A stretch of DNA of 64,000 nt from Escherichia coli (GTDB lineage Bacteria; Pseudomonadota; Gammaproteobacteria; Enterobacterales; Enterobacteriaceae): the NCBI RefSeq assembly GCF_003334815.1, contig NZ_QOWO01000009.1. One strand, written 5' to 3'. A model generated the notes under the pieces. The model did no database searches. It saw only the letters and a program-made list of their open reading frames with translations, and was not told where the DNA came from. The position numbers were made by a program, and so were the translations under genes. Numbering within the stretch: the stretch's first letter is position 1; each line of letters begins with the position of its first letter. Positions 24,549 to 61,312 of the stretch are shown here, in pieces.

Positions 24549-26937
<2,389 letters not shown>

Positions 26938-30615: not shown

Positions 30616-30617
30616 GA

Positions 30618-33052: not shown

Positions 33053-34536
33053 GCAATCACCCCCAGCAGACGCGCCACCGTGACGCGATCGGAGTAGTCC
33101 AGACGCTGATTGCCAACAATCTGGTAATCTTCATGGCCTTTGCCCGCGACCAGTACCACATCATTCTCTTTAGCCTGCATAACGGCGCAAGTCACCGCTT
33201 CAGCACGGCCTTCCATCACTTTGGCATGTCCGGCATCTAACATTCCCGCCAGAATATCGTTGATGATGGCACGCGGTTCTTCGGTACGCGGGTTATCGTC
33301 CGTCACCACCGCCACGTCAGCAAACTCTTCGGCAATTGCGCCCATCAGTGGACGCTTACCTTTATCGCGATCGCCACCACAGCCAAAGACACACCACAGC
33401 TTGCCCGCACAGTGCAGACGCGCCGCCTGTAAGGCTTTTTCCAGTGCATCCGGCGTATGCGCGTAATCCACCACCACCGTCGGTTTGCCTGGCGCAGTGA
33501 ACACTTCCATACGTCCGCAAACCGGTTGCAGACGCGCGGCGGTTTTCAGCAGATCAGCCAGTGGATAGCCGAGTGCCAACAGTGTCGCCAGCGCGAGCAG
33601 CAGGTTGCTGACGTTAAAAGCGCCCATCAGATGGCTTTCAATTTCGCCATCGCCCCAACTTGAGCTAAAGCGAATCGTCGCACCGCTGTCGTGATAGTTC
33701 ACTTCGGTCGCTTTCAACCAGCGTCCGTGACAGTTCGGATTAATATGATCTTCCATTGATACCGCAACCGCGTCCGGCAGTTTTGCCAGCCAGCGGCGGC
33801 CCACTTCATCGTCGGCGTTAATAATCGCCTGACCGCAATGATGCTCAGAATAAAGCAGCCATTTCGCGGCTTCGTAGTGTTCCATATCACCATGATAATC
33901 AAGGTGATCGCGGCTTAAGTTGGTAAAGACCGACGCCGCAAATTTCAATGCCGCCACACGGTGCTGTACCAGCCCGTGGGAGGAAACTTCCATTGCGCAA
34001 AACGTCGCGCCCTGATCCACCAGCCCCGCCAGCTCATGCTGAACATCGACTGCCGAACCGGTTGTATTTTCTGTCGGGATCACTTTCCCCAGCAGGCCGT
34101 TACCAACGGTGCCCATTACCGCGCTGGTTTCGCCAAGCAGTTGGCTCCACTGCGCCAACAGCTGGGTAGTCGTGGTTTTGCCGTTGGTGCCCGTTACGCC
34201 CACGAGACGTAAATTGTCAGAGGGTTCATGGTAAAAGCGGCCCGCCAGTGCAGATAAACGCTCGTTGAGCTGGCTGAGATAGATGACCGGTACGCCGTGC
34301 ATTTCACGGATTTCACCATCGGTCGCCTCATCTTTCGCCTCTGCAATAATGGCAGCCACACCTTGCGCTATCGCCTGCGGGATATATCGACGCCCGTCCG
34401 CCTGATGACCTACTACAGCTACAAAGAGATCGCCCGCCGCAGCCACACGGCTGTCGAGTGTCATCTCTCGCAGTGCTCGCGAAGGTGCGTCTGGCACCCA
34501 CGGAGCAAGAAGGTCGCGCAAATTACGATCTGCCAC
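33049..34536 (-). CDS. murE: UDP-MurNAc-L-Ala-D-Glu--meso-diaminopimelate ligase (495 aa)
   Basis: ORF track 495 aa, Mur ligase motif TGTNGKTTT. Confidence 0.97.
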
Positions 34537-36289
34537 CTGTCCCCTCGCCTTGATTAATCACAAATTCATTTTTATCGCCCGTTGTCAGCGCATCCGGCTC
34601 GATGTTCATGGTACGCAATACGCCGCCCATGATGGCACCAAAGACCGGCGCGGAAACGGCGCCGCCGTAGTATTTACCCGCCTGCGGATCGTTGATAACA
34701 ACAACCAGCGCGAAGCGCGGCTGACTCGCAGGCGCAACGCCTGCGGTATAAGCAATATATTTATTGATGTAGCGACCGTCCGGCCCGACCTTTTTCGCGG
34801 TACCGGTTTTAATGGCGATACGATAGCCTTTAATCGCCGCCTTCACGCCGCCGCCGCCTGGTAGCGCCACGCTTTCCATCATATGCACCACAGTGCGGAC
34901 AATGGATTCCGGGAAGACACGTTCACCGGGAACCGGGGGGTCAACTTTGGTAATCGACAGTGGGCGATAAATGCCGTAGCTGCCGATAGTTGCGTAGACT
35001 CGCGCTAACTGTAATGGTGTTACCATTAGCCCGTAGCCGAAAGAGAAGGTGGCCCTCTCTATGTCAGACCACCGTTGTTTTTGAGGATATAAGCCACTGC
35101 GTTCTCCGACCAACCCCAAATTGGTCGCTTTTCCCAGTCCAAAACGTGAGTAAGTATCTACTAACGCTGAGGACGGCATCGCTAACGCCAGCTTGGAAAC
35201 ACCGACGTTACTCGACTTCTGTAATACCCCGGTCAGGGTTAATTCGCTGTAGCGTGCCACGTCTTTGATTTCGTGGCCGTTAATTCGATAAGGAATGGTA
35301 TTGAGTACCGAGTTTTCCCGCACCACGCCACGTTGCAACGCGGTCATTACCACCATCGGTTTAACCGTTGAGCCCGGTTCAAACACGTCGGTGATGGTAC
35401 GGTTACGCATCGCCTCTTTCGGCGTGCCGCTCAGATTGTTAGGGTTGTATGACGGGCTGTTAGCCATCGCCAGCACTTCACCGGTGTTGACATCCACCAG
35501 CACGGCGCTACCAGATTCAGCCTTGTTAAAGGCCACCGCGTTGTTCAGTTCGCGATAAACCAGCGCCTGCAGGCGTTCATCAATACTCAGCGCCAGGTTG
35601 TGCGCTGCCTGGCTGTCAGTAGAAGAAATATCTTCAATTACGCGACCATAGCGGTCTTTACGCACAATGCGCTCACCCGGCTGCCCGGTAAGCCATTTAT
35701 CGAAACTCTTCTCAACGCCCTCAATCCCTTGACTATCGACGTTAGTAAAGCCGATGAGGTGAGCAGTCACTTCGCCGGACGGATAGTAACGGCGAGACTC
35801 TTCACGCAGATGAATCCCCGGCAGTTTCAGTTTTTTGATGTAGTCCGCCATGTCAGGGTTCACCTGACGCGCCAGATAAATAAAGCGCCCTTTCGGGTTG
35901 GCGTTAATGCGGGCTGAAAGCTGATCCAGCGGAATATTGAGCGCGTTAGCCAGCGCCTTCCAGCGGTCACCGACGCTGATACCGCCAGCGTCATGCACTT
36001 CTTTCGGGTCAGCCCAAATCGCTTTTACCGGCACGCTCACCGCTAACGGGCGACCAGAACGGTCAGTAATCATGCCGCGGGAGGTGGAAACTTGCTGAAC
36101 GCGAAGAGAACGCATGTCGCCCTCTTTCACCAGCATATCCGGGGAGATAACTTGTAACCACGCTACGCGTCCGAGCAGAAAAGCCAGCGCCAGGAGAATA
36201 CAGCCGCATAACAACGCAAAACGCCAACTGATAAAGTTGGCATGTTCTTCCTGACGTTTTGGTTTCTGCGTTTTCGCCGCTGCTTTCAT
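34523..36289 (-). CDS. ftsI: Peptidoglycan D,D-transpeptidase FtsI / PBP3 (588 aa)
   Basis: Penicillin-binding motifs STVKP, SSN, KTGTA present in translation. Confidence 0.98.
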
Positions 36290-36304
36290 GCGTCGCGTTT
36301 ATCC

Positions 36305-36670
36305 TTATTTTTGCACTACGATATTTTCTTGTGACGGATCAACATGCTGCATTTGCAGCTTTTCCGTGGCGATCCTTTCCACCCGGCTATGGTCGCCGAG
36401 CGCATTCTCTTCAAGGATCAGGTTGCGCCATTCAATGTCTAAAGCATCTCGCTCCAGCACCAGTTGTTCGCGCTGAGCGGTCAGTAAACGGGTATGGTGC
36501 GCCGTGGTTACCACAGTCACCGCCGTCAAAATAATGCAAATGAACAGGCAGAGTGGCAGCTTCCCAAATCGCAAAAGATCGTCACCGATAACACCAGGCA
36601 ATGCATGGCGCTCGTGGCTTCCCATCGATCCTTTAACTTTGCTTAGAGCTTCTGTCACTCTGCTGATCAT
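36305..36670 (-). CDS. ftsL: Cell division protein FtsL (121 aa)
   Basis: ORF track 121 aa [27 protein letters not shown], single TM + coiled coil. Confidence 0.95.
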
Positions 36671-37608
36671 GCATTCGTCCTCTCTGCAATACGCAGAACT
36701 GAACTACGGGCACGAGGGTTCTCAGCCACCTCTTCTTCGCCCGGCATTAACTTGCCTAGTGCTCGCAGCTGACGGCCACCCAGTTTTTTGAGCTGCTCTT
36801 CAGTCATCGGTAACCCTGCCGGAACTTGCGGACCGCGGCTGTTTTCACGCATAAAACGTTTCACAATACGGTCTTCCAGCGAGTGGAAGCTGATGATCGA
36901 AAGCCGCCCACCCGGGGCCAGCACGTTGAGCGAGCTTTTTAGCGCCTGCTCTATCTCCTCCAGTTCACTGTTTACCCAAATGCGCACCGCCTGGAAGGTA
37001 CGGGTCGCGGGATGTTTAAACTTATCTTTCACCGGCGTTGCAGCAGCCACGACTTCCGCCAGTTCTTTGGTGCGGGTCATCGGCTGTTCGCGGTTACGCT
37101 CGACAATGGCGCGGGCAATGCGTTTGGCAAAACGCTCTTCACCATAGGTTTTCAATACCCAGGCGATATCGGCTTCTTCTGCGGTTTGTAGCCATTCAGC
37201 GGCTGACTGCCCACGGGTTGGGTCCATACGCATGTCCAGCGGACCATCGCGCATAAAGGAAAAGCCACGTTCAGCATCATCAAGTTGCGGTGAAGAGACG
37301 CCAAGATCGAGGAGAATGCCGTCGATCTTGCCGATAAGATCGCGCTCGGCAACGTATTCGCCCAGCGCGGAGAAAGGTCCGTGGATGATGGAGAAGCGCG
37401 GATCATCAATAGTCTTCGCAACGGCGATAGCCTGCGGGTCGCGATCGATCGCCAGCAAACGCCCCTCTTCGCCAAGCTGCGAGAGGATCAGACGTGAGTG
37501 ACCACCGCGACCAAAAGTCCCATCAATGTAGATGCCATCAGGACGGATATTGAGGCCATTAACGGCTTCATCCAGCAGCACCGTAGTATGTTTATAGTTT
37601 TCCATCAT
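36667..37608 (-). CDS. rsmH: 16S rRNA m4C1402 methyltransferase RsmH/MraW (313 aa)
   Basis: Canonical start [19 protein letters not shown] 43 codons inside longest ORF; SAM-MTase. Confidence 0.94.
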
Positions 37609-37609
37609 T

Positions 37610-38068
37610 TTATAGAGACAAGTCCTGCAGTCGCTCCGATAAGTCTCCGGTAGCCAACTGCTCTGCGTCGATATCTTCCTTGACCTGTTGATGCCAGGTT
37701 GTTTCATCCCACAGCTCAAACTTGTTGAACTGTCCAACCAGCATCACTTCTTTTGTCAGCCCGGCATGTTGCCGCAGTACTGGCGCGATTAACAATCGAC
37801 CTGCGCCATCCATCTGACATTCGCTGGCATGACCTAACAGTAGGCGCTGCACACGGCGCTCAACCGGGTTCATGCTCGACAGACGCGATAATTTTTGCTC
37901 GATAATTTCCCATTCAGGCAGGGGGTAAAGCAGCAGGCACGGGTGATAAATGTCAATGGTGCAAACCATTTGACCGGCAGCGTTCTCAAGCAGCTGTTCC
38001 CGATAACGGGTAGGCACTGATAAGCGCCCTTTGCTGTCGAGATTGACTAACGTTGCTCCCCGGAACAT
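37610..38068 (-). CDS. mraZ: Transcriptional regulator MraZ (152 aa)
   Basis: Canonical start [19 protein letters not shown]; first gene of dcw cluster. Confidence 0.94.
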
Positions 38069-38079
38069 GCCAGCCTCAC

Positions 38080-38150
38080 CCCTTATTCCCACTTTGCCCC
38101 ACAATTTCCCACTGAAAGGAGTTTACGGAGCTGAGGAAAAGCTTGTCAAG
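38080..38150 (-). promoter_or_regulatory. Pmra promoter (-35 TTGACA at 38145-38150, -10 TAAACT at 38120-38125, minus strand) with three 10-bp-spaced GTGGG(A/G) direct repeats (38087-38112) = MraZ operator
   Basis: Direct reading: rc gives TTGACA-N18-TAAACT followed by gtgggaaattgtggggcaaagtggga. Confidence 0.7.
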
Positions 38151-38625
38151 CCAGTCACAAGGCATACCGAGGTAAAAAACCCGATGTTTACGGCTAATAT
38201 CAGCGTTGTTTATTTTACGTCCAACGTGCGAAGCAAATTAACGTTATGAATAGCTGTAAGAAAAAATCCCTCATCGTCATCACCGTTTTAAAATGACTCA
38301 CTATTTTCCACAGCAAATATAAAGTGTCAGTTTGCGACGCGAGCGGCATTTTAGGACATATCTTCCCCGGTTAACAGTCCTTGTTACGTCTGTGTGGCGC
38401 TTGATGCCAGCGGGTTTGCGCAAAAGCAAAGAAAAGTGTTTGTTAAATCGGCAATTCATCGCCGCATGTAACAAAATAATGCAAAAACGCGCTGTCGATA
38501 TCACTTAATTATTGTGAATTTCAGCTGGTGAGTTAATTAACGGGCGGGTTTAAAAGCATTTATCAATAATAGTCAGGAATAGTCTTATTTACTTTAAGCA
38601 TATTGATGTCCAGTCCCGTACTCTA

Positions 38626-38660
38626 CGCGCCAGAGGGAAATTCACCTGGCGCGTATTTTT
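38626..38660 (+). terminator. Hairpin cgcgccag-N12-ctggcgcg followed by tattttt on the plus strand, just 3' of cra (cra is on the minus strand)
   Basis: 8-bp GC stem with T-run on plus-strand side only; orientation fits a plus-strand transcript or a bidirectional terminator. Confidence 0.4.
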
Positions 38661-38669
38661 GTTCGCGGC

Positions 38670-39674
38670 TTAGCTACGGCTGAGCACGCCGCGGCGATAG
38701 AGATTACGTTTAATGCGCGTTAAACCAGGTTTTGGCTTACGCGGTTCGTCCAGGCTTGCCAGGACAATCTCCAGCACACGCTCTGCGACATCGCGGTGAC
38801 GTTGAGCCACTGCCAGCACCGGACACTGTAAGAAGTCGAGCAGTTCGTTATCGCCAAAGGTGGCAATTGCCAGGTCAGAAGGCAGTTTGCCGTCGCGACG
38901 CAGCGTGACATCCATCACTCCTTGCAACAACGCAAACGACGTTGTGAACAGCGCCTGCGGCATCGGATGCGTTTCCAGCCATTTTTCGAATAACTGGGCA
39001 GCCGCCTCCCGCTCATAGCTGTTGGCATACAGGAAATGCACTTCGCGCGGATCATCTTTCCAGGCAGTACGGAAACCTTGTTCACGCAGGAAGCTGACAG
39101 AAAGCTCCGGTAGCGCACCAAGATAAAGCACCGTCTCGGCGGGAAACTTACGTAACTCTTCCGCCAGCATTTCGGCATCATCCTGATCGGCACCAACCAC
39201 GCTGGTGAAGTGTTCACGATCGAGGGCGCGGTCCAGCGCGACAATCGGGAACGGGTCGTTAGCCCAGCGTTGATAAAAAGGATGCTCAGGAGGCAACGAC
39301 GTCGAAACAATAATGGCATCAACCTGACGCTGTAAAAGGTGCTCAATGCACCGCATTTCGTTGTCTGGCTGATCTTCTGAGCAGGCAATCAGCAGTTGAT
39401 AACCCCGTTGCCGCGCCTGGCGTTCAAGATAGTTAGCGATGCGGGTATAGCTGGTGTTCTCCAGATCGGGGATCACAAGACCAATAGAACGTGTGCGTCC
39501 AGCACGAAGCCCAGCTGCCACGGCGTTCGGGTGGTAATTGTGCTCACGCACCACAGCCATGACTTTTTCAACGGTTTTGTCGCTCACACGGTATTGCTTC
39601 GCTTTGCCGTTAATAACATAGCTTGCAGTGGTCCGCGACACTCCCGCCAGCCGAGCGATTTCATCCAGTTTCAC
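38670..39674 (-). CDS. cra: Catabolite repressor/activator Cra (FruR), LacI family (334 aa)
   Basis: N-terminal [27 protein letters not shown]. Confidence 0.97.
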
Positions 39675-39853
39675 AATTGCCCCTTGCGTAAAATGTAAAA
39701 ACCATAGCCATTGTACTGGTATGGGTTAAATTCATTAACATCTAAGCGCAGAAAATTAACTGCGGCAACTGCTTTTATTCCAGGTTCCCACTGATTTCGC
39801 AAAAAAAGCCCAACGTGACATGTTGGGCTGTAAATTGCGCATTGAGATCATTC

Positions 39854-40345
39854 TCAACGCATTATTTTATCGCCGCGCGAAAGTCCGACCACACCAGAGC
39901 GAGCAACCTCCACAATTTTCGCCACATCGCGAATCGATGCTAAAAATGCATCAAGCTTACCGCTGGTGCCTGCTAATTGAACGGTATAAAGCGAGGGTGT
40001 GACATCGATAATTTGCCCACGGAATATTTCCGTATTACGTTTCACTTCGTCACGCCCGTAACCGCTGGCCTGAATTTTCACCAGCATGATTTCCCGCTCA
40101 ACATGCGCGCCCTGCCCCAACTCACTCACGCGCAAGACATCGACCAGTTTGTGTAATTGCTTTTCGATCTGCTCAAGTACTTTTTCATCGCCCACGGTCT
40201 GGATGGTCATACGCGATAATGTCGGATCGTCGGTTGGCGCAACGGTCAGGCTTTCAATGTTGTAGCCACGCTGGGAAAAAAGGCCAATCACGCGGGATAA
40301 CGCGCCTGATTCATTTTCGAGTAAGACTGATAATATCCGGCGCAT
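39854..40345 (-). CDS. ilvH: Acetolactate synthase III small (regulatory) subunit (163 aa)
   Basis: Canonical start [19 protein letters not shown] (ACT domain). Confidence 0.94.
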
Positions 40346-40347
40346 AA

Positions 40348-42072
40348 TCAGGTTCTCTCCGTTTTGCTTAACCACATTTCATCCATTCCGCCCCCGCGAA
40401 TCTGCATCGGGTAGACGTGCTCGCTGCCATCGACGGTAACATCAACAAACACCAGGCGATTATTGCGCACCTGTTCCAGCGCCTCGCTAAGTTTGCTTTC
40501 CAGCTCATGCGGATGAGAAATCTGGATCCCGACATGCCCATAGGCTTCCGCCAGACGGACGAAATCGGGTAGCGATTGCATATAAGATTGTGAATGACGG
40601 CCGGAATAGATCATGTCCTGCCACTGCTTCACCATCCCCAGATAGCGGTTATTGAGATTCACCACCAGTACGGGCAACTCGTATTGCAACGCGGTAGACA
40701 GTTCCTGGATGTTCATCTGAATACTGCCGTCGCCAGTGACGCAAACCACGGTTTCTTCTGGCAACGCCATTTTGACGCCCAGTGCCGCAGGTAAACCAAA
40801 ACCCATCGTGCCGAGGCCACCGGAATTGATCCAGCGACGCGGTTTGTCGAATGGATAATAAAGTGCAGCAAACATCTGGTGCTGCCCGACATCGGACGTC
40901 ACGTAAGCGTCTCCCTTCGTCAACCGCCAAAGAGTCTCGATCACCGCCTGCGGTTTAATCTTTTCACTGTGAGTGTCATATTTCAGGCACTGACGAGCGC
41001 GCCACTGTTCAATTTGCTGCCACCAGTCGCGGATCTCATCCAGTGGTTGATGGGCGGATTCTTGCGACAAGAGTTCAAGCATTTGTTCGAGGACCTGGCG
41101 AGCATCCCCCACAATCGGGATATCCGCAGTCACGGTTTTAGAAATGGAAGTAGGATCAATATCGATATGCAGAACAGTGGCATTTGGGCAGTACTTTGCC
41201 AGATTGTTCGTCGTTCGGTCATCAAATCGTACCCCGACGGCGAAAATCACATCCGCGTTATGCATCGTCATATTGGCTTCGTAGGTACCGTGCATTCCCA
41301 GCATGCCCAGTGCCTGACGATGCGTTGCCGGAAACGCCCCCAGCCCCATCAATGAGCAAACAACGGGCAGATTCAACGCCTCCACCGTTTCTTTCAACTG
41401 CTGATGGCAGCCCGCCGTGATTGCCCCACCGCCTACGTAGACAACCGGTTTTTTTGCCGCTACCAGCGTTTGCAGAGCACGCTTAATTTGCCCTTTATGT
41501 CCGGTAGTAGTGGGATTGTAAGAACGCATACTGACCGACTCCGGCCAGACATAGGGTAATTTGTTCGCCGGATTAAGAATATCTTTCGGTAAATCAACGA
41601 CTACTGGTCCTGGGCGACCACTTGCCGCCAGCCAGAAAGCCTTTTTCAGCACCTGCGGAATGTCTTCCGTTTGCTTAACCAGAAAACTGTGTTTAACCAC
41701 CGGTCGCGAAATCCCCACCATGTCGCACTCCTGAAAGGCATCGTAACCTATCAACGAGGTCGCTACCTGCCCGGAAAGGACAACTAATGGAATGGAATCC
41801 ATATAAGCGGTGGCGATGCCAGTAATCGCATTGGTCGCCCCTGGACCCGACGTTACCAGCACGACGCCGACTTCCCCGGTCGCGCGCGCCAGGCCATCGG
41901 CCATATGCACCGCCGCCTGCTCATGACGAACTAATACATGATCAATACCACCCACGGTATGCAATGCATCATAAATATCAAGGACTGCGCCTCCGGGATA
42001 ACCGAATACTTGTTTAACGCCCTGATCGATAAGCGATCGGACGACCATCTCGGCTCCAGACAACATCTCCAT
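40348..42072 (-). CDS. ilvI: Acetolactate synthase III large subunit (574 aa)
   Basis: Canonical start [19 protein letters not shown]; TPP-binding enzyme. Confidence 0.95.
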
Positions 42073-42389
42073 GGCCTGCCTCACTGTTTGACGGAAAAAA
42101 TGTGTAAAACACATTAACCGTCCGATCTTGCTTAAGCAATTGGCAGCCAGAGACATAAACACGGGGTAATAAGAATAAACAGGAGGAAAGGTGAAAAGAA
42201 ACGATAAAATCCTCCATTACAGAGGATTAAATTGATAATAAATCGGCTGAATCCCACAACTTACAGCAATTTCTCTATTTTTTTAATTAATCCTAAAATA
42301 GAGAGCCCACACATTCAGAATAAAATTCTACATTCAATAAAAAATGCAGAATAAACCAGACATTCATGTCTGACCTATTCTGCAATCAG

Positions 42390-43334
42390 TTAGCGTTTGC
42401 AAATTGAGACTAATTGCTCTTCCATCCACTGATGGCCTTTATCGCGCCCGGCAGCTTCATGCCAGGAGAGATAACAGGTTCTGCTGTTTTGTTTTAACGG
42501 CAGCGGTAATACCTGTAATTCTAAGGATTCAGCGAACTCTTCAGCCAGCCAACGCGGCGCAATAGCGACCAAATGCGTTTGCGACACCACGCTAAGTACG
42601 CTCATCATTGCCATGCCCTGATACGCGATACTGGCTTGCTTATCTACCGTGTCATACCAAGGTTGACTAAATGACGCGAAACGATCGAGCGAAACCGCCG
42701 CATGTTGTTCGTTATAAACATCATGTTTCAGTAACGGGCCCTTAATTGTTGGATGATTTTTGCTGGCTACCAGCACCATTTCATCTTTAAATAATGGTAC
42801 GCTGGTAAATTCAGGACGATGGAAGTCTTCATAACTAATCACAAACTCCGTTTCCTGATAACGCAGCTGATGTTCAGTGTTCTGATTTAATGAAGACTTG
42901 AACATAACATGTATATTTGGCGCAATCTGCTCAATGTGATTATAAATCTGCGAGGTCAGAATGCTGTCTAACGGGCTGCAAACACAAAGATGAAATACAC
43001 GTTCACTGCTCGCGGGTTCAAAACCTGAACCAGGCAATTCATTTTGTACTAGTTGCAATGCCTGACGAACTGAACCAAAAAGTTGAAATGCGCGAGCAGT
43101 CGGTTGAATACCACGGCCATAACGAACAAAAAGCTCGTCATTAAACATCACCTTCAGGCGTGCAACAGCGTTACTGACCGCAGGTTGCGACATTCCCAGA
43201 ACATGAGCGGCACGAGTAATGTTTTGCTCCTGCATCACGGCATCGAAAACGGTTAATAAGTTGAGATCGACCATGCGTAGCTGTGGTTTGCTTAACTCCG
43301 CCGTCTCTGGATGATCTGTTTGTACCTCTGGCAT
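42390..43334 (-). CDS. leuO: LysR-type transcriptional regulator LeuO (314 aa)
   Basis: Canonical start [33 protein letters not shown]; LysR HTH. Confidence 0.93.
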
Positions 43335-43993
43335 ACTTAACTCCACTGTCACACTTAACTCCCTTTCCCTTATTGGAATGCAGAGAAATAATCCTGAAGA
43401 ATATGATTTATCATGCATATAAAATAAGAAAAAGCAAAATGAGTAAAATTCGGAAAACATAAAGATACGGGTTCTGATAAAAACAGAATCCATTGCCGTG
43501 GAATGAGTCATTTACCACAGCATAATAATCCATAATGTTTTTGTTGCGAAAACAATCTAATCATAACTACCGCGAATACTCAATCATCTACAAAATGGAT
43601 TAAATGTGCTTATTTAATAATTAATTTATATATTTAATGCATTAATTCTTAACATTAATTGATCAATAATATTCACCAAATCAATATCAAAAAAAATCGC
43701 AAAACATATAATTCAATACAAATCATCAGGATAGGTTTTGCAACGCGTGCATTTTGTCCCCTTTTTCCTCGTTGATTAGATGCAAAAATTTATGCTGAAA
43801 TATGTCAACCGATGAAAAGCGTCGGTAGTTAAGCAGAAATTAATATCGCTTACTTTAACCACCGCAGCACAATTAGCTAATTTTACGGATGCAGAACTCA
43901 CGCTGGCGGGACGTTTTTATTGCGTCAGGGTTGACATCCGTTTTTGTATCCAGTAACTCTAAAAGCATATCGCATTCATCTGGAGCTGATTTA

Positions 43994-44080
43994 ATGACTC
44001 ACATCGTTCGCTTTATCGGTCTACTACTACTAAACGCATCTTCTTTGCGCGGTAGACGAGTGAGCGGCATCCAGCATTAA
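43994..44080 (+). CDS. leuL: leu operon leader peptide with four consecutive Leu codons (28 aa)
   Basis: [28 protein letters not shown]-stop read from sequence. Confidence 0.93.
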
Positions 44081-44095
44081 GCCAGCACGCAGTCA

Positions 44096-44128
44096 AACAA
44101 AAAACCCGCGCCATTGCGCGGGTTTTTT
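44096..44128 (+). terminator. leu attenuator terminator hairpin aaaacccgcgccattgcgcgggttttttt
   Basis: Perfect GC stem + T7 run between leuL and leuA. Confidence 0.9.
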
Positions 44129-44172
44129 TATGCCCGAAGCGAGGCGCTCTAAAAGAGACAAGGACCCAAACC

Positions 44173-46835
<2,663 letters not shown>

Positions 46836-46837
46836 TC

Positions 46838-48854
<2,017 letters not shown>

Positions 48855-48862
48855 TCCCCTTG

Positions 48863-48880
48863 CCCGGTCAAATGACCGGG
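48863..48880. terminator. Hairpin cccggtcaaatgaccggg between convergent leuD and setA
   Basis: Perfect 6-bp GC stem in 48-bp convergent gap. Confidence 0.5.
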
Positions 48881-48902
48881 CTTTCCGCTATCGTCCACGT
48901 CA

Positions 48903-50081
48903 TCAAACGTCTTTAACCTTTGCGGTTAAAAATAATGCGACAACAGAAATAACCGCAATTACCCAGTAGACAGCAAAGTGCCCCCAACTTTGTGCAATTG
49001 CTCCCTGAATAACGCCAGCCAGAATTACCCCGGTAGAAATACTGTTAGTAAATAAGGTGGTAGCTGCCCCCGCTCTTCCAGGCATTAAATCCTGAAACCA
49101 TAGCATCCCAATACCCGCAACAATGCCGATAAATACAGCGTTAAAAAGTTGCAGCGTCATCAACGCCATACGGCTATTAAAGAAAATCAATCCGGTGTAA
49201 AACAGTACTCCTGCCGCCACTGCTATGACCATCATTCGCCGCTTACCATAACGTTTGACATAGTAGCCAGCCAGAATCATTGCTGGTATTTCCAGTCCAG
49301 CTGCCGTCCCCATCAGGAAACCCGCCAGTTTGTCTGGCAATCCTAACTCGCTACTGATCCACAACGGCATATCAATAATGTACATGGTGTTGCAGGTCCA
49401 CATTAACGTCGAGGCGACAAATAACATCCGTACGTTACTATCCTGCCAGCCACCTTGCATTGATAAAGCATTTTCCGACGGCAGTTCTACCCGCGCCACA
49501 GACGGAAGCATAAATGCAATCAATACCAGACTGAGTGTGAATATCCCGGCGGCAATCGAAAACATCACCGTAAAGCCGTAATTCAACGCCAGCATAAAGG
49601 CCAACGGTGGACCGATAACCCATGCCAGAGAAAGCTGCGCACGCATCACCGAGCTAAACATCACCACTTCTCGCGCCGAGTTATCCGCATATTCCCGCGC
49701 CAGAGCAAATAACTGTGGCATTGCCGTATTGGCCAGAGATGCCAGAAGCACACCACAGGTGATAAGCGTCAGATAATGACGATTAAATGCAAACAATAGC
49801 GCATTGCCGATAGCCATCAAACAGCAAAATATAATCAGTTTTCGCCGATCGCCCTGACTGTCAGAACGTTTTGCCAACCAGAGGCTTACGCCGATCCCAG
49901 CAATAGCATTCACCGTATAAAAGAGGCCGATCCAGAAAGGTTGCGCGCCAACCTCACGACTCAGAAATAAGCTCAATGTAGGAGCCTGTAGCGCCCCGGC
50001 CACCCCCATCATAAAAGCGACCAGCATAAATGCCGCGTAAACACCGTTCATACGGCGAGCCATCGTCATTATCCAGATCAT
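48903..50081 (-). CDS. setA: Sugar efflux transporter SetA, MFS (392 aa)
   Basis: ORF track 392 aa, 12-TM MFS; immediately downstream of sgrS. Confidence 0.93.
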   Translation of the reverse strand: MIWIMTMARRMNGVYAAFMLVAFMMGVAGALQAPTLSLFLSREVGAQPFWIGLFYTVNAIAGIGVSLWLAKRSDSQGDRRKLIIFCCLMAIGNALLFAFNRHYLTLITCGVLLASLANTAMPQLFALAREYADNSAREVVMFSSVMRAQLSLAWVIGPPLAFMLALNYGFTVMFSIAAGIFTLSLVLIAFMLPSVARVELPSENALSMQGGWQDSNVRMLFVASTLMWTCNTMYIIDMPLWISSELGLPDKLAGFLMGTAAGLEIPAMILAGYYVKRYGKRRMMVIAVAAGVLFYTGLIFFNSRMALMTLQLFNAVFIGIVAGIGMLWFQDLMPGRAGAATTLFTNSISTGVILAGVIQGAIAQSWGHFAVYWVIAVISVVALFLTAKVKDV

Positions 50082-50108
50082 ACGTTCCCTTTTTAGCGCG
50101 GCGAGAAT

Positions 50109-50335
50109 AAAAAAAACCAGCAGGTATAATCTGCTGGCGGGTGATTTTACACCAATACTCAGTCACACATGATGCAGGCAAGTCAACTTTCAGAATTGCG
50201 GTCATCCCACTGCATCAGTCCTTCAAGCATGGTTAATCGTTGTGGGACGCTTAACCAACGCAACCAGCACAACTTCGCTGTCGCGGTAAAATAGTGCTGA
50301 TAAAACTGACGCATGGGGCACCCCCTTGCTTCATC
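50109..50335 (-). ncRNA. sgrS: Dual-function small RNA SgrS (about 227 nt) with 3' intrinsic terminator
   Basis: Contains sgrT ORF; 3' end hairpin ccagcag-N7-ctgctgg followed by U8 (plus strand 50109-50137); divergent from sgrR. Confidence 0.85.
50183..50314 (-). CDS. sgrT: SgrT small protein (43 aa) encoded within SgrS
   Basis: MRQFYQHYFTATAKLCWLRWLSVPQRLTMLEGLMQWDDRNSES-stop. Confidence 0.85.
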   Translation of the reverse strand: MRQFYQHYFTATAKLCWLRWLSVPQRLTMLEGLMQWDDRNSES

Positions 50336-50402
50336 GTTAGGAATTATTGACTTAATATAGGGAAAATAAAATTGCTGTCTTTTGCACAGGAGTTCCCCTT
50401 TT

Positions 50403-52058
50403 ATGCCATCTGCTCGTCTGCAACAACAGTTCATCCGCCTGTGGCAATGCTGCGAGGGTAAATCGCAGGACACAACGCTCAACGAACTGGCAGCGTTATT
50501 GAGCTGCTCGCGTCGTCATATGCGCACCCTGCTCAACACCATGCAGGATCGCGGCTGGCTGACGTGGGAAGCGGAAGTCGGGCGCGGTAAACGCTCGCGT
50601 CTGACATTCCTCTATACCGGGCTGGCGCTTCAGCAACAGCGGGCGGAAGACCTGCTGGAGCAGGATCGTATCGATCAACTGGTGCAGTTGGTTGGCGACA
50701 AAGCGACTGTGCGGCAAATGCTGGTTTCTCATCTGGGCCGCAGCTTCCGCCAGGGGCGGCACATCCTGCGCGTGCTCTACTATCGTCCGTTGCGTAATCT
50801 GCTACCTGGCAGCGCATTGCGCCGTTCCGAAACCCATATCGCCCGGCAAATCTTCAGTTCGCTAACGCGCATAAATGAGGAAAATGGGGAACTGGAAGCA
50901 GACATCGCCCACCACTGGCAGCAAATTTCACCGCTTCACTGGCGTTTCTTTTTGCGTCCAGGAGTCCATTTTCACCATGGTCGTGAACTGGAAATGGACG
51001 ATGTGATCGCCTCTTTAAAACGAATCAATACGCTGCCGCTCTATTCGCATATTGCTGACATTGTGTCGCCGACGCCCTGGACGCTGGATATCCATCTCAC
51101 GCAACCGGACCGCTGGTTACCGTTACTGCTGGGGCAAGTTCCGGCGATGATCCTGCCGCGCGAATGGGAAACCCTCAGTAACTTTGCCAGCCATCCCATC
51201 GGCACCGGTCCGTATGCGGTGATTCGCAACAGCACCAATCAACTGAAAATTCAGGCATTCGATGACTTCTTCGGTTACCGGGCATTAATCGACGAAGTTA
51301 ACGTCTGGGTTCTGCCGGAAATTGCCGACGAGCCAGCCGGAGGGCTGATGCTAAAAGGTCCACAGGGCGAGGAAAAAGAGATTGAAAGCCGCCTGGAGGA
51401 AGGTTGCTACTATTTACTGTTCGACAGCCGCACCCATCGCGGGGCGAATCAGCAAGTCAGGGACTGGGTAAGCTATGTGCTTTCTCCAACTAATCTGGTC
51501 TATTTCGCTGAGGAACAGTACCAGCAACTGTGGTTCCCGGCTTATGGACTGCTCCCCCGTTGGCACCATGCCCGCACCATAAAGAGCGAAAAACCGGCTG
51601 GCCTGGAAAGCCTCACCCTAACCTTTTATCAGGATCACAGTGAGCATCGGGTGATTGCCGGGATCATGCAGCAGATTCTGGCAAGTCACCAGGTCACGCT
51701 GAAAATCAAAGAGATCGACTACGATCAGTGGCATACAGGAGAGATCGAAAGTGATATCTGGCTAAACAGCGCCAACTTTACCCTGCCGCTGGACTTCTCT
51801 GTTTTCGCACATTTATGCGAAGTGCCACTGCTACAACATTGCATTCCCATTGACTGGCAAGCCGACGCTGCTCGCTGGCGCAATGGCGAGATGAATCTGG
51901 CGAACTGGTGCCAGCAACTGGTCGCCAGCAAAGCGATGGTGCCATTATTGCACCACTGGCTGATCATTCAGGGGCAACGCAGTATGCGCGGCCTGCGCAT
52001 GAATACCCTCGGCTGGTTCGATTTTAAATCAGCGTGGTTTGCGCCACCGGATCCATGA
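50403..52058 (+). CDS. sgrR: Transcriptional regulator SgrR (551 aa)
   Basis: Canonical start [15 protein letters not shown]; N-terminal HTH + solute-binding-like domain. Confidence 0.93.
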
Positions 52059-52094
52059 TTGCTGGTTGATAACAAAATCACTACACTAACGCCG

Positions 52095-52200
52095 TTCTCA
52101 ACGGGGTGCCACGCGTACGCGTGCGCTGAGAAAATACCCGTCGAACCTGATCCGGATAACGCCGGCGAAGGGATTTGAGGCTCCTTCTCAAGTCCTTTGC
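52095..52200 (+). ncRNA. TPP (thi-box) riboswitch in thiBPQ leader
   Basis: Conserved elements ggggtgcc ... ctgagaaaatacccg ... gaacctgatccggataacgccggcgaaggga read directly upstream of thiB. Confidence 0.85.
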
Positions 52201-52221
52201 CACTCTTTTTTGAGGTGCAAA

Positions 52222-53205
52222 GTGTTAAAAAAATGTCTGCCCCTGCTGTTGCTGTGCACAGCGCCCGTTTTCGCTAAACCCGTTCTGACTGTTTATACCT
52301 ACGATTCCTTCGCCGCCGACTGGGGGCCTGGTCCGGTGGTTAAAAAAGCCTTTGAAGCCGACTGTAATTGCGAACTGAAACTGGTGGCGCTGGAAGATGG
52401 CGTTTCGCTTCTCAACCGTCTACGGATGGAAGGCAAAAACAGTAAAGCCGATGTGGTGCTGGGGCTGGATAACAACCTGTTAGACGCCGCCAGTAAAACC
52501 GGACTGTTTGCCAAAAGCGGTGTGGCAGCGGATGCCGTTAACGTTCCCGGCGGCTGGAATAATGACACTTTCGTACCGTTTGATTATGGCTACTTCGCCT
52601 TCGTTTATGACAAGAACAAACTGAAAAACCCGCCACAAAGCCTGAAAGAACTGGTTGAGAGCGATCAAAACTGGCGGGTGATTTATCAGGATCCGCGCAC
52701 CAGTACACCGGGGCTGGGTCTGTTGCTATGGATGCAAAAAGTCTATGGCGATGACGCCCCACAAGCCTGGCAGAAACTGGCGAAGAAAACGGTCACGGTC
52801 ACCAAAGGCTGGAGCGAAGCCTACGGCCTGTTTTTAAAAGGTGAAAGCGATCTGGTACTGAGTTACACCACCTCTCCGGCTTATCACATTCTCGAAGAGA
52901 AGAAAGATAACTACGCCGCCGCGAACTTCAGCGAAGGTCACTATCTGCAAGTGGAAGTCGCCGCCCGCACCGCTGCCAGCAAGCAGCCGGAGCTGGCGCA
53001 AAAATTCCTCCAGTTTATGGTTTCTCCGGCTTTCCAGAATGCGATCCCAACCGGCAACTGGATGTATCCGGTGGCAAACGTCACGCTGCCTGCCGGTTTT
53101 GAAAAATTGACCAAACCCGCAACCACGTTGGAGTTCACGCCAGCCGAAGTGGCGGCACAACGTCAGGCATGGATTAGCGAATGGCAACGCGCCGTCAGCC
53201 GTTAA
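52222..53205 (+). CDS. thiB: Thiamine ABC transporter periplasmic binding protein (327 aa, GTG start)
   Basis: Signal peptide LKKCLPLLLLCTAPVFA; SBP fold. Confidence 0.93.
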   Translation: MLKKCLPLLLLCTAPVFAKPVLTVYTYDSFAADWGPGPVVKKAFEADCNCELKLVALEDGVSLLNRLRMEGKNSKADVVLGLDNNLLDAASKTGLFAKSGVAADAVNVPGGWNNDTFVPFDYGYFAFVYDKNKLKNPPQSLKELVESDQNWRVIYQDPRTSTPGLGLLLWMQKVYGDDAPQAWQKLAKKTVTVTKGWSEAYGLFLKGESDLVLSYTTSPAYHILEEKKDNYAAANFSEGHYLQVEVAARTAASKQPELAQKFLQFMVSPAFQNAIPTGNWMYPVANVTLPAGFEKLTKPATTLEFTPAEVAAQRQAWISEWQRAVSR

Positions 53206-54791
53206 TTCCCGGCTGGTTAATTCCAGGTGTAAGCGCCACCACGCTGGTGGTAGCGGTTGCGCTGGCGGCGTTTCTCGCCCTGTGGTGGAACGCGCCGCAG
53301 GATGACTGGGTGGCAGTCTGGCAGGACAGCTATCTGTGGCATGTGGTGCGCTTCTCCTTCTGGCAGGCGTTTCTCTCGGCACTGCTCTCTGTCATACCCG
53401 CGATATTCCTCGCCCGCGCGCTCTATCGCAGGCGCTTTCCGGGTCGGCTGGCGCTGTTGCGTCTGTGTGCAATGACCTTGATCCTCCCGGTGTTGGTCGC
53501 TGTTTTCGGCATTCTTAGCGTCTATGGTCGCCAGGGCTGGCTGGCAACACTCTGCCAATCGCTCGGTCTGGAGTGGACCTTTTCGCCCTACGGCCTGCAA
53601 GGTATTTTGCTGGCCCATGTGTTTTTTAATCTGCCGATGGCGAGCCGCTTATTACTCCAGGCACTGGAAAACATCCCCGGCGAACAGCGTCAACTTGCCG
53701 CCCAGCTTGGGATGCGTAGCTGGCATTTTTTCCGCTTCGTCGAATGGCCGTGGTTACGGCGACAAATCCCGCCGGTTGCTGCGCTTATCTTTATGCTCTG
53801 TTTCGCCAGCTTCGCCACCGTGCTATCGCTGGGGGGCGGTCCGCAGGCGACCACTATCGAGCTGGCAATCTATCAGGCGCTGAGTTACGACTACGATCCT
53901 GCCCGCGCGGCAATGCTGGCGCTGCTCCAGATGGTGTGCTGCCTCGGGCTGGTGCTGTTGAGTCAGCGATTGAGTAAGGCCATTGCGCCCGGCACCACGC
54001 TGCTGCAAGGCTGGCGCGACCCGGACGATCGTCTGCATAGCCGCATTTGCGACACGGTGTTAATTGTGCTGGCGCTGCTGCTGTTGCTGCCACCGTTACT
54101 GGCGGTGATCGTCGATGGGGTAAATCGCCAGTTGCCGGAAGTGCTGGCACAACCGGTGCTGTGGCAGGCGCTGTGGACCTCGTTGCGTATTGCGCTGGCG
54201 GCAGGTGTATTGTGCGTAGTGCTGACCATGATGCTGCTATGGAGCAGTCGCGAACTGCGGGCGCGGCAGAAAATGCTGGCGGGTCAGGTGCTGGAGATGA
54301 GCGGCATGTTGATCCTCGCCATGCCGGGGATTGTGCTGGCTACCGGCTTCTTTTTACTGCTCAACAACACTATCGGCCTGCCACAATCTGCTGACGGCAT
54401 TGTGATTTTCACCAATGCGTTAATGGCGATCCCTTATGCGCTGAAAGTGCTGGAAAACCCGATGCGCGATATCACCGCCCGCTACAGCATGTTATGTCAG
54501 TCGCTGGGGATTGAAGGCTGGTCACGCTTAAAAGTGGTGGAGCTGCGCGCCCTGAAACGTCCACTGGCGCAGGCGCTGGCCTTTGCATGCGTGCTGTCGA
54601 TTGGTGATTTTGGCGTGGTGGCGTTGTTCGGTAACGATGATTTCCGCACCCTGCCGTTTTATCTCTACCAGCAAATTGGCTCCTATCGCAGCCAGGACGG
54701 TGCGGTCACCGCGTTAATTCTGCTGCTGCTCTGTTTTCTGCTGTTTACCGTGATTGAAAAACTACCGGGGCGAAATGTTAAAACTGACTGA
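53181..54791 (+). CDS. thiP: Thiamine ABC transporter permease (536 aa)
   Basis: ORF track 536 aa, duplicated permease domains; overlaps thiB and thiQ. Confidence 0.95.
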
Positions 54792-55473
54792 TATCACCTG
54801 GCTTTACCACCATTTGCCGATGCGTTTTAGCTTAACGGTGGAACGCGGCGAGCAGGTGGCGATCCTCGGGCCAAGCGGCGCGGGTAAAAGTACCCTGCTG
54901 AATTTGATCGCCGGTTTTCTGACGCCAGCCAGCGGTTCGCTGACTATCGATGGCGTAGATCACACAACTATGCCGCCGTCACGCCGTCCGGTGTCGATGC
55001 TGTTTCAGGAGAACAACCTGTTCAGCCACCTGACGGTCGCACAGAACATCGGGCTGGGGCTAAATCCGGGATTGAAACTGAACGCGGTACAGCAGGGGAA
55101 AATGCACGCTATCGCCCGCCAGATGGGGATTGATAATTTAATGGCGCGGTTACCGGGCGAGCTTTCCGGCGGTCAGCGACAGCGAGTGGCGTTAGCGCGT
55201 TGTCTGGTACGCGAACAGCCGATTTTATTGCTCGATGAACCGTTCTCTGCGCTCGATCCGGCGTTACGTCAGGAGATGTTGACGCTGGTGAGCACGAGCT
55301 GCCAGCAGCAAAAAATGACGCTATTGATGGTGTCGCACAGCGTGGAAGATGCGGCGCGGATCGCCACGCGCTCGGTAGTAGTCGCCGACGGGCGCATCGC
55401 CTGGCAGGGTATGACCAATGAGTTGTTGAGCGGTAAGGCGAGTGCTTCGGCACTATTGGGGATTACGGGTTAG
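54775..55473 (+). CDS. thiQ: Thiamine ABC transporter ATP-binding protein (232 aa)
   Basis: Walker [13 protein letters not shown] signature LSGGQRQR. Confidence 0.95.
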
Positions 55474-55480
55474 TATGCAC

Positions 55481-55568
<88 letters not shown>

Positions 55569-55586
55569 CCCGCACAAGACTATCTC

Positions 55587-56351
55587 CTAAACCCCAACCA
55601 CTTTACGCAAAATATCGATATACACCGGCATCAACGGGTGGCGAATTAACACCACCAGCGCCACCACGCCGATGGCAGAAATCAACGGCGTCAGCCACAA
55701 CAAACGACCGCGGGACAAATAATGACTCAAACGGTCAGTCGCTTTACCGCTGCGCCATAACCGCCAGCACAGCCAGCCACCAACCCACAAAAACACCGCT
55801 GTTGCCAGCAGCAACCATTTAAACTCACCGCTCTGCATTCCGGCAGGAATATCGATCGCCGCGCCCGCCAGAATCCCTGGCAGGAAGTAAAACGGCGGCC
55901 ACAGCAGGCAGCCGATAATATTCGGCGTAATAAATTTAGCCACCGGCAGATCCAGCATTCCCGCCACCATTGGCACCAGCGGACGCGTCGGGCCAACAAA
56001 ACGACCGACCAGAATGGTGAACATGCTGTGTTGATGCAACGCATGTTCAGTTTTATCAAGTAGTGCTTTGTTTTTCTTCAGAAATGACCAGCGATGCAAC
56101 GGCTTTTTAAAACGCCAACCCAGCCAGAAAGAAATCCAGTCGCCCATCAAGCAGCCAATAATCCCTGCCAGCCAGGCGTGCCAGAAACTTAACTCGCCGC
56201 TGCCAATCAGCGCTCCCAGCCCCGCCATCAGCACCGTACCGGGTAGAATCAAACCGACCAGCGCCAGCGACTCCAGAAAGGCCACCAACACCACCGCCAT
56301 CAATGAATACACGGTGGATTGGGTAATAAAGTGTTCCAGCAATGCTTGCAT
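55587..56351 (-). CDS. yabI: DedA-family inner membrane protein (254 aa)
   Basis: ORF track 254 aa; position between thiQ and araC. Confidence 0.9.
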   Translation of the reverse strand: MQALLEHFITQSTVYSLMAVVLVAFLESLALVGLILPGTVLMAGLGALIGSGELSFWHAWLAGIIGCLMGDWISFWLGWRFKKPLHRWSFLKKNKALLDKTEHALHQHSMFTILVGRFVGPTRPLVPMVAGMLDLPVAKFITPNIIGCLLWPPFYFLPGILAGAAIDIPAGMQSGEFKWLLLATAVFLWVGGWLCWRLWRSGKATDRLSHYLSRGRLLWLTPLISAIGVVALVVLIRHPLMPVYIDILRKVVGV

Positions 56352-56436
56352 AATGTGCCTGTCAAATGGACGAAGCAGGGATTCTGCAAACCCTATGCTA
56401 CTCCGTCAAGCCGTCAATTGTCTGATTCGTTACCAA

Positions 56437-57315
56437 TTATGACAACTTGACGGCTACATCATTCACTTTTTCTTCACAACCGGCACGAAACTCGCTCGGG
56501 CTGGCCCCGGTGCATTTTTTAAATACTCGCGAGAAATAGAGTTGATCGTCAAAACCAACATTGCGACCGACGGTGGCGATAGGCATCCGGGTAGTGCTCA
56601 AAAGCAGCTTCGCCTGACTAATGCGTTGGTCCTCGCGCCAGCTTAAGACGCTAATCCCTAACTGCTGGCGGAAAAGATGTGACAGACGCGACGGCGACAA
56701 GCAAACATGCTGTGCGACGCTGGCGATATCAAAATTGCTGTCTGCCAGGTGATCGCTGATGTACTGACAAGCCTCGCGTACCCGATTATCCATCGGTGGA
56801 TGGAGCGACTCGTTAATCGCTTCCATGCGCCGCAGTAACAATTGCTCAAGCAGATTTATCGCCAGCAGCTCCGAATAGCGCCCTTCCCCTTGCCCGGCGT
56901 TAATGATTTGCCCAAACAGGTCGCTGAAATGCGGCTGGTGCGCTTCATCCGGGCGAAAGAAACCCGTATTGGCAAATATTGACGGCCAGTTAAGCCATTC
57001 ATGCCAGTAGGCGCGCGGACGAAAGTAAACCCACTGGTGATACCATTCGCGAGCCTCCGGATGACGACCGTAGTGATGAATCTCTCCTGGCGGGAACAGC
57101 AAAATATCACCCGGTCGGCAGACAAATTCTCGTCCCTGATTTTTCACCACCCCCTGACCGCGAATGGTGAGATTGAGAATATAACCTTTCATTCCCAGCG
57201 GTCGGTCGATAAAAAAATCGAGATAACCGTTGGCCTCAATCGGCGTTAAACCCGCCACCAGATGGGCGTTAAACGAGTATCCCGGCAGCAGGGGATCATT
57301 TTGCGCTTCAGCCAT
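56437..57315 (-). CDS. araC: Arabinose operon regulator AraC (292 aa)
   Basis: Canonical start [35 protein letters not shown] 17 codons inside longest ORF; C-terminal AraC HTH. Confidence 0.97.
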
Positions 57316-57339
57316 ACTTTTCATACTCCCACCATTCAG

Positions 57340-59354
<2,015 letters not shown>

Positions 59355-59364
59355 GGACACGATA

Positions 59365-60867
59365 ATGACGATTTTTGATAATTATGAAGTGTGGTTTGTC
59401 ATTGGCAGCCAGCATCTGTATGGCCCGGAAACCCTGCGTCAGGTCACCCAACATGCCGAGCACGTCGTTAATGCGCTGAATACGGAAGCGAAACTGCCCT
59501 GCAAACTGGTGTTGAAACCGCTGGGCACCACGCCGGATGAAATCACCGCTATTTGCCGCGACGCGAATTACGACGATCGTTGCGCTGGTCTGGTGGTGTG
59601 GCTGCACACCTTCTCCCCGGCCAAAATGTGGATCAACGGCCTGACCATGCTCAACAAACCGTTGCTGCAATTCCACACCCAGTTCAACGCGGCGCTGCCG
59701 TGGGACAGTATCGATATGGACTTTATGAACCTGAACCAGACTGCACATGGCGGTCGCGAGTTCGGCTTCATTGGCGCGCGTATGCGTCAGCAACATGCCG
59801 TGGTTACCGGTCACTGGCAGGATAAACAAGCCCATGAGCGTATCGGCTCCTGGATGCGTCAGGCGGTCTCTAAACAGGATACCCGTCATCTGAAAGTCTG
59901 CCGATTTGGCGATAACATGCGTGAAGTGGCGGTCACCGATGGCGATAAAGTTGCCGCACAGATCAAGTTCGGTTTCTCCGTCAATACCTGGGCGGTTGGC
60001 GATCTGGTGCAGGTGGTGAACTCCATCAGCGACGGCGATGTTAACGCGCTGGTCGATGAGTACGAAAGCTGCTACACCATGACGCCTGCCACACAAATCC
60101 ACGGCAAAAAACGACAGAACGTGCTGGAAGCGGCGCGTATTGAGCTGGGGATGAAGCGTTTCCTGGAACAAGGTGGCTTCCACGCGTTCACCACCACCTT
60201 TGAAGATTTGCACGGTCTGAAACAGCTTCCTGGTCTGGCCGTACAGCGTCTGATGCAGCAGGGTTACGGCTTTGCGGGCGAAGGCGACTGGAAAACTGCC
60301 GCCCTGCTTCGCATCATGAAGGTGATGTCAACCGGTCTGCAGGGCGGCACCTCCTTTATGGAGGACTACACCTATCACTTCGAGAAAGGTAATGACCTGG
60401 TGCTCGGCTCCCATATGCTGGAAGTCTGCCCGTCGATCGCCGCAGAAGAGAAACCGATCCTCGACGTTCAGCATCTCGGTATTGGTGGTAAGGACGATCC
60501 TGCCCGCCTGATCTTCAATACCCAAACCGGCCCAGCGATTGTCGCCAGCTTGATTGATCTCGGCGATCGTTACCGTCTACTGGTTAACTGCATCGACACG
60601 GTGAAAACACCGCACTCCCTGCCGAAACTGCCGGTGGCGAATGCGCTGTGGAAAGCGCAACCGGATCTGCCAACTGCTTCCGAAGCGTGGATCCTCGCTG
60701 GTGGCGCGCACCATACCGTCTTCAGCCATGCACTGAACCTCAACGATATGCGCCAATTCGCCGAGATGCACGACATTGAAATCACGGTGATTGATAACGA
60801 CACACGCCTGCCAGCGTTTAAAGACGCGCTGCGCTGGAACGAAGTGTATTACGGGTTTCGTCGCTAA
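59365..60867 (+). CDS. araA: L-arabinose isomerase (500 aa)
   Basis: Canonical start [20 protein letters not shown] 8 codons inside longest ORF. Confidence 0.97.
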
Positions 60868-60870
60868 GTA

Positions 60871-61312
60871 GCCGCATCCGGTATGTAACGCCTGATGCGA
60901 CGCTGACGCGTCTTATCTGGCCTACACGCTGCGATTTTGTAGGCCGGATAAGCAAAGCGCATCCGGCATTCAACGCCTGATGCGACGCTGGCGCGTCTTA
61001 TCAGGCCTACGCGCTGCGATTTTGTAGGCCGGATAAGCAAAGCGCATCCGGCATTCAACGCCTGATGCGACGCTGGCGCGTCTTATCAGGCCTACGCGCT
61101 GCGATTTTGTAGGCCGGATAAGCAAAGCGCATCCGGCATTCAACGCCTGATGCGACGCTGGCGCGTCTTATCAGGCCTACGCGCTGCGATTTTGTAGGCC
61201 GGATAAGCAAAGCGCATCCGGCATTCAACGCCTGATGCGACGCTGGCGCGTCTTATCAGGCCTACACGCTGCGATTTTGTAGGCCGGATAAGCAAAGCGC
61301 ATCCGGCACGAA
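60871..61312. repeat. Tandem REP/BIME array: about 5 copies of an 85-bp unit, each unit containing two inverted REP palindromes
   Basis: cctgatgcga recurs at 60891, 60976, 61061, 61146, 61231 (exact 85-bp period); the three middle units appear identical. Confidence 0.9.

Follow-up and report, generated by a model that had tools for sequence, protein, structure and literature searches.

Sequence anatomy of the SgrS/SgrT small RNA locus and its junction with setA in a 64-kb Escherichia coli window

SgrS, SgrT, SgrR and SetA of Escherichia coli K-12 are among the best-studied small RNA (sRNA) systems, and the primary paper on read-through into setA is reportedly Sun and Vanderpool 2011. In K-12, SgrS of a sequence identical to the one treated here has been found experimentally to be induced by glucose-phosphate stress via SgrR, to depend on Hfq and to lower ptsG mRNA. 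Published work also reports that SgrR activates both sgrS and setA, and an RT-qPCR study treated sgrST-setA as a single operon, both ends of which rise together. The sgrS terminator has been described as having a stem of moderate strength, a long U tail and a regulated efficiency that goes up under stress; SgrS is co-transcribed with setA, and Hfq does not bind the read-through RNAs, in which the U tract is internal (PMC6582626). Hfq-dependent sRNAs have U tails of at least 7, and the tail of SgrS has a role in Hfq binding (PMC6582626). For recognising SgrS homologs, Horler and Vanderpool 2009 used a divergent sgrR homolog, a conserved promoter with its -10 element, 3' complementarity to the translation-initiation region of the cognate ptsG, and an inverted repeat followed by a T run.

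Identity and anatomy of the locus

We compared a 64,000-nucleotide stretch of E. coli DNA (the window) with these systems, starting from a sequence-only reading that had placed a dual-function SgrS sRNA in it. Window positions 47702..52702 were identical to 75000..80000 of MG1655 NC_000913.3 (100% identity, 0 mismatches over 5 kb), which ruled out a non-K-12 strain with a variant locus around sgrS. The annotated MG1655 coordinates of sgrS (77367..77593), sgrT (77388..77519), sgrR (75644..77299) and setA (77621..78799) mapped one-to-one onto the window (Table 1). When 5,426 complete E. coli genomes were searched by megablast, 49800..50700 matched MG1655 and numerous other strains at 100% identity, and the matched segments carry annotations for sgrR, sgrT and setA. 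The window as a whole is the reverse complement of MG1655 from ~63.7 to 127.7 kb, and its differences from that genome (three SNPs and one repeat-number change) all lie far from sgrS. Given the identity to MG1655 together with the published dual function, SgrR activation and sgrS-setA co-transcription, this is almost certainly the known E. coli K-12 sgrR / sgrS-sgrT-setA glucose-phosphate-stress locus. The locus itself brings no new biology; it is a positive control, in that a well-characterised dual-function sRNA locus was recovered from raw sequence with near-exact boundaries.

Table 1. Coordinates of the features of the locus within the window
Feature	Position	Strand	Description
sgrS	50109..50335	-	227 nt; +1 at 50335, 3' end in U8 run at 50109
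sgrT CDS	50183..50314	-	43 codons plus stop, within the 5' two-thirds of SgrS
GGGGGUGCCCC inverted repeat	50315..50325	-	SgrS nt 11-21; sequesters the sgrT ribosome-binding site
Seed (base-pairing region)	50149..50168	-	SgrS nt 168-187; complementary to the ptsG mRNA ribosome-binding region
Rho-independent terminator	50109..50138	-	8-pair stem (7 Watson-Crick plus G.U), 7-nt loop, U8 tail
sgrR-sgrS divergent control region	50336..50402		67 bp; with CAATAAT and conserved upstream blocks
sgrR	50403..52058	+	551-aa transcription factor, sgrS activator
Terminator-setA junction	50082..50108	-	27 nt, with setA Shine-Dalgarno AAGGGA at 50086-50091
setA	48903..50081	-	392-aa sugar efflux transporter, MFS/SET family

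A covariance-model scan of the whole window, which the sequence-only reading had proposed as a check, returned a full-length match to Rfam RF00534 (228.8 bits, gathering score 37; E 2.7e-64; model positions 1-232 of 232). The match spans 227 nt from 50335 to 50109, in agreement with the transcript of about 227 nt that had been proposed, and its sequence equals annotated MG1655 sgrS (b4577). The claim of a dual-function SgrS is thus supported by the Rfam match, the identity to MG1655 and the published dual function, with a coding arm that is weak. All SgrS features that can be checked in silico are present, namely the covariance-model score, divergent sgrR with its promoter, the SgrT open reading frame, ptsG complementarity and a terminator with at least 7 U; the divergent sgrR, the ptsG complementarity and the terminator sought by Horler and Vanderpool 2009 were all found here.

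The sgrR ATG lies at 50403 on the plus strand, leaving exactly 67 bp (50336..50402) before sgrS, and the earlier description of a 67-bp region shared by divergent sgrS and sgrR proved exact. SgrR scored 1126.8 bits against the NCBIfam equivalog NF010149 (cut-off 476). Within the shared region, CAATAAT at -14..-8 (window 50343-50349) and the blocks upstream of it were invariant in an alignment of 22 species representatives (A2). We take CAATAAT as the putative sgrS -10 element because of this invariance, which fits the published account of a conserved -10 element and an experimentally defined sgrS promoter. A consensus scan had offered AAGACA-16-TATATT, whose end lies 19 nt short of the annotated +1; for the sgrS promoter we preferred the invariant CAATAAT and rejected this candidate.

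The seed was examined by scanning each 25-nt window of SgrS against ptsG -50..+10 from MG1655. The best duplex paired SgrS 167-188 with ptsG -29..-8, over the ptsG Shine-Dalgarno (-27.8 kcal/mol, matched by only 1 of 200 shuffled targets). This sliding-window scan replaced a whole-molecule duplex of SgrS with ptsG -110..+30, which yielded a long, meaningless interaction no better than shuffles. Folding of the whole RNA gave -79.2 kcal/mol compared with -63.4 kcal/mol in shuffles (z -3.4). On A2, 87.7% of the Rfam consensus structure was paired, compared with 31-46% for control structures in which one partner was slid by 1-3 columns; double changes occurred at 7 pairs of the internal helices, no better than in shuffles of the same 22 species. 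The SgrS structure is therefore backed mainly by conservation and wobble changes, with only modest covariation.

Elsewhere in the window, the only single-base differences from MG1655 NC_000913.3 across 1..61138 were at 5119, 34127 and 61096, and these three SNPs indicate a source in K-12 or a very close relative, not the exact reference. The araD-araA spacer holds an 85-bp tandem repeat of 5.1 copies (60873-61308), REP/BIME-type with an Rfam naRNA4 match, and the MG1655 spacer has two 85-bp units (170 bp) fewer. The Rfam family PssrA (RF02797, 'plasmid-encoded Shigella sRNA A') matched at full length at 22389-22478 (-) with 105.5 bits. This match covers the 3' end of chromosomal ftsA and the beginning of ftsZ (K-12 105224-105313), overlapping annotated antisense StfZ on the opposite strand, a position at odds with the family's name. 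Further Rfam matches fell at their expected K-12 positions: tp2 antisense in the pdhR-aceE spacer (4688-4801, +), two naRNA4/REP units after mutT (16076-16269, -), STnc40 at the secA 3' end (16673-16742, -), the leu operon leader (43980-44129, +) and the TPP riboswitch, annotated sroA, between sgrR and thiB (52092-52191, +).

The coding arm and its ribosome-binding-site hairpin

The sgrT frame, read on the minus strand from 50314 to 50183, encodes a 43-aa product (MRQFYQHYFTATAKLCWLRWLSVPQRLTMLEGLMQWDDRNSES) followed by a stop. The 43-codon SgrT frame proposed within the sRNA is thus intact, and it matched Pfam PF15894 over residues 3-37 (E 3.5e-13, 49.5 bits). A search of NCBIfam returned no model for it; in PGAP annotation an identical protein is called 'glucose uptake inhibitor SgrT'. 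Among the 22 species representatives, 21 retained an open frame with an ATG and a Shine-Dalgarno. Mean pairwise differences at codon positions 1, 2 and 3 were 0.12, 0.16 and 0.27 (22 species), and the peptides followed the pattern F..YF.AT....WL..LS.PQRL.MLEELMQWE. Separately, sgrT seems to have been lost or weakened independently in several places, with ATT in place of the ATG start in Enterobacteriaceae bacterium UBA5654 (L035:248-561) and an O157-like strain, and a frameshift in HS-02.

The coding arm of the K-12 allele is weak, because the GGGGGUGCCCC hairpin occludes the sgrT ribosome-binding site. The K-12-lineage base G13 (window 50323) makes a GGGG/CCCC stem across the sgrT Shine-Dalgarno, and the first 30 nt of SgrS fold at -12.4 kcal/mol with G13 compared with -6.7 kcal/mol with the A13 of other alleles; the other alleles and other genera carry A at nt 13 or are without the repeat. 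Published experiments report that the K-12-specific stem-loop inhibits sgrT translation, that native sgrT translation in K-12 is weak, and that a base-pairing-defective K-12 sgrS with its native ribosome-binding site gives no growth rescue. When compared with the commonest setA-positive allele, the K-12 lineage differs by three bases: T at -50 (50386), which sits in the conserved sgrR-sgrS control region, G13, and G116 (50220). The last converts SgrT residue 32 from E to G, a change common to some strains; the residue is E in 20 of 21 other species and D in one.

These observations, E32G in the K-12 copy included, could be read as making the K-12 allele effectively a pure riboregulator, in which the hairpin silences native sgrT and 'dual-function' is an overstatement. 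We think this possible but unlikely, since the sgrT frame, its start codon and its Shine-Dalgarno are intact, K-12 SgrT is active when expressed, reviews report SgrT translation under stress, and the hairpin may open in vivo; SgrT is further described as interacting with EIICB-Glc (PMC3901232). We thus retain the dual-function reading, with a coding arm weakened in this allele.

Terminator, setA junction and variation among relatives

The terminator stem pairs CCAGCAG (50131-50137) with CUGCUGG (50117-50123) on the minus strand around a 7-nt loop, a closing G.U bringing it to 8 pairs, and U8 follows directly (50109-50116). The hairpin folds at -13.2 kcal/mol compared with -3.4 +/- 1.7 in dinucleotide shuffles (z -5.7), and none of the 200 shuffles reached its stability. 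The terminator had earlier been called strong: its hairpin and U8 were borne out, but 'strong' applies only in relative terms, as the literature describes a moderate, regulated terminator. The setA ATG lies at 50081 (-), and the previously proposed distance of 28 bp holds when counted from the final U to the first base of the start codon, but not as the gap, which is 27 nt (50082..50108). The encoded protein scored 602.6 bits against NCBIfam TIGR00899 (cut-off 522.3) and 446.7 against the SetB equivalog, below its cut-off of 693.

We then surveyed related genomes with a seed-based pattern (CATNANGTGNNNCTGAGTANTGGTGT), which fixes 20 of 26 bases at SgrS nt 162-187. In species-representative genomes it found 38 loci (L007-L044) in Escherichia, Salmonella, Citrobacter, Klebsiella, Raoultella, Atlantibacter and Superficieibacter. 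The seed columns were invariant in the 22 species of A2, a set gathered with the seed pattern, so that this invariance is not independent evidence. A tblastn search of the 38 loci with the window proteins placed sgrR divergently upstream of sgrS wherever sequence reached that far. With enough downstream sequence available in 37 representatives, setA directly followed sgrS in 33 and was absent from four Escherichia (E. albertii, E. whittamii, Escherichia sp. E1V33 and the E. coli representative), in which leuD comes directly after sgrS. The distance from the T run to the setA ATG was 27-32 nt in 28 of the 33, 35-41 nt in four and 134 nt in one Atlantibacter.

Between seed and terminator, some loci (e.g. 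Klebsiella, Raoultella) carry 60-165 inserted nucleotides, and across the loci the terminator sits 59 to 229 nt past the seed, yet the stem moves with setA and the range of gaps is kept regardless. The stem CCAGCAG/CTGCTGG was exact in 35 loci, one Atlantibacter species among them, around a loop that takes >10 forms; two further Atlantibacter had a single G.U-compatible change, and one locus was truncated. This conservation is not an artefact of selection, because the search pattern constrained only the seed. No compensatory changes occurred in the stem among the 35 representatives, which is unusual for an intrinsic terminator, and the stem therefore gives no covariation evidence. We also asked of the aligned species whether a G.U-closed, weaker terminator (-13.2 vs -15.5 kcal/mol) tracks the presence of setA, and rejected the idea as a general rule, since the closing pair is G-C in 20 of 22 aligned species and setA is present in 16 of those 20.

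Within E. coli, sgrS was found in 5400 of the 5426 complete genomes, as a form at least 95% identical to the window in 3242 and as a diverged form (~80-95% identical), whose match ends at the terminator end, in 2158. Roughly 8 of 30 evenly spaced genomes from the ranking were 100% identical to the window. The setA gene was present in 3241 of the 5426, leaving ~40% without it, and the three diverged-allele genomes inspected (B2 NRG 857C, O157-like and HS-02) all had sgrS then leuD, without setA. From these counts, presence of setA and the K-12-type sgrS 3' allele appear linked in E. coli, and near-perfectly so. The diverged allele is ~9% different, its changes concentrated in the 3' third, between the final codons of sgrT and the U tract; promoter, first ~125 nt, seed and terminator stem are conserved between both. 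A published comparison of K-12 with CFT073/O157 SgrS gives 88% identity and notes the O157 ATG-to-ATT change. Its synteny figure shows setA, and in the literature we found no text discussing the concordance of allele and setA. Between seed and terminator (A2 columns 278-300, window ~50139-50148) two haplotypes were seen, AAAATCACCCG and TAATCGCC(A/G)CG, each common to more than one genus; K-12, for example, has its haplotype in common with Salmonella and UBA5654, while C. werkmanii carries that of B2-type E. coli. Such cross-genus sharing may reflect ancient recombination involving the 3' end of sgrS together with setA as a module. The allele-setA link in E. coli, the invariant terminator stem and the conserved terminator-setA spacing are of minor specialist use.

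The sequence-only reading had also suggested that terminator read-through couples sgrS to setA, and the 27-nt gap, the conserved spacing and the published co-transcription all agree with this, as does a consensus promoter scan that found no promoter-like site on the minus strand between the sgrS +1 and setA. We therefore favour a scheme whose anatomy, family membership, ptsG complementarity, conserved frame and conserved junction come from the sequence, and whose induction, Hfq dependence, SgrT activity and read-through come from the literature. Accumulating sugar phosphates would lead SgrR to activate the divergent sgrS promoter, and most transcripts would end at the CCAGCAG/CUGCUGG+U8 terminator to give the 227-nt SgrS, whose 3' U tail and terminator hairpin would bind Hfq. 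The single-stranded seed (nt 168-187) would then pair with ptsG mRNA at its ribosome-binding region, as well as with other targets, causing translation block and decay. The same RNA would serve as mRNA for the 43-aa SgrT, an inhibitor of the PtsG transporter, with weak translation in the K-12 allele. Transcripts that read through the terminator would continue 27 nt into setA and act as setA mRNA, not as sRNA, and the terminator would thus split output between the sRNA and a sugar exporter. No sequence evidence against this SgrS/SgrT-setA explanation was found.

Other readings of the junction were weighed against this scheme. The invariant stem, its movement with setA and the gap of 27-32 nt in 28 of 33 representatives raise the idea that the terminator and setA junction form a sequence-specific regulatory module and not merely a leaky hairpin. 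We hold this to be unlikely; if true, a factor or alternative structure could read the stem and so set the ratio of sRNA to setA mRNA, or a processed setA mRNA could require the hairpin as its 5' element. A setA promoter of its own, with the terminator insulating two independent genes that are adjacent only incidentally, would accord with the good hairpin and U8 tail, and with the ~40% of E. coli genomes that keep sgrS without setA and so show SgrS to be independent of it. Such a promoter is highly improbable, as the scan found no candidate inside sgrS, the 27 nt before the setA ATG are mostly Shine-Dalgarno region, the spacing is kept in 28 of 33 species despite seed-to-terminator distances of 120-229 nt in some, and SgrR-dependent setA induction and co-transcription are published. 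Finally, although a same-strand element directly upstream of setA with a terminator between is the classical attenuator layout, we dismiss a mere transcribed leader or attenuator of setA mRNA, lacking any trans-acting role, given that sgrS far outnumbers setA among E. coli genomes (5400 to 3241), that the seed is complementary to ptsG and invariant across genera (in a set selected by pattern there), and that extensive published genetics document trans regulation by SgrS.

Comparison with known systems

Like SgrS, the RNAs AzuCR, RNAIII and SR1 are single transcripts that base-pair with mRNAs and encode a small protein. The coding (5') and pairing (3') parts of SgrS are separate, whereas those of AzuCR are described as overlapping. 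In the class of read-through sRNA-ORF pairs (PMC6582626), an sRNA promoter drives a downstream ORF and the read-through RNA is not a functional sRNA; SgrS-setA is the example given there, and this locus does not differ from it. The SgrS allele of CFT073, O157:H7 and phylogroup B2-type strains shares its promoter, 5' two-thirds, seed and terminator stem with the window, but is ~9% diverged, mostly in the 3' third: the SgrT C-terminus, the seed flanks, the terminator loop and the U tract. It carries A13 and so is without the ribosome-binding-site hairpin, and it has leuD directly next, without setA; O157-type strains also have ATT for the sgrT ATG, unlike the window. From SgrS/SgrT of MG1655 (b4577/b4662; RF00534) there is no difference at the locus, which has the same ends, open reading frame, seed and terminator, the same divergent sgrR and the same downstream setA.
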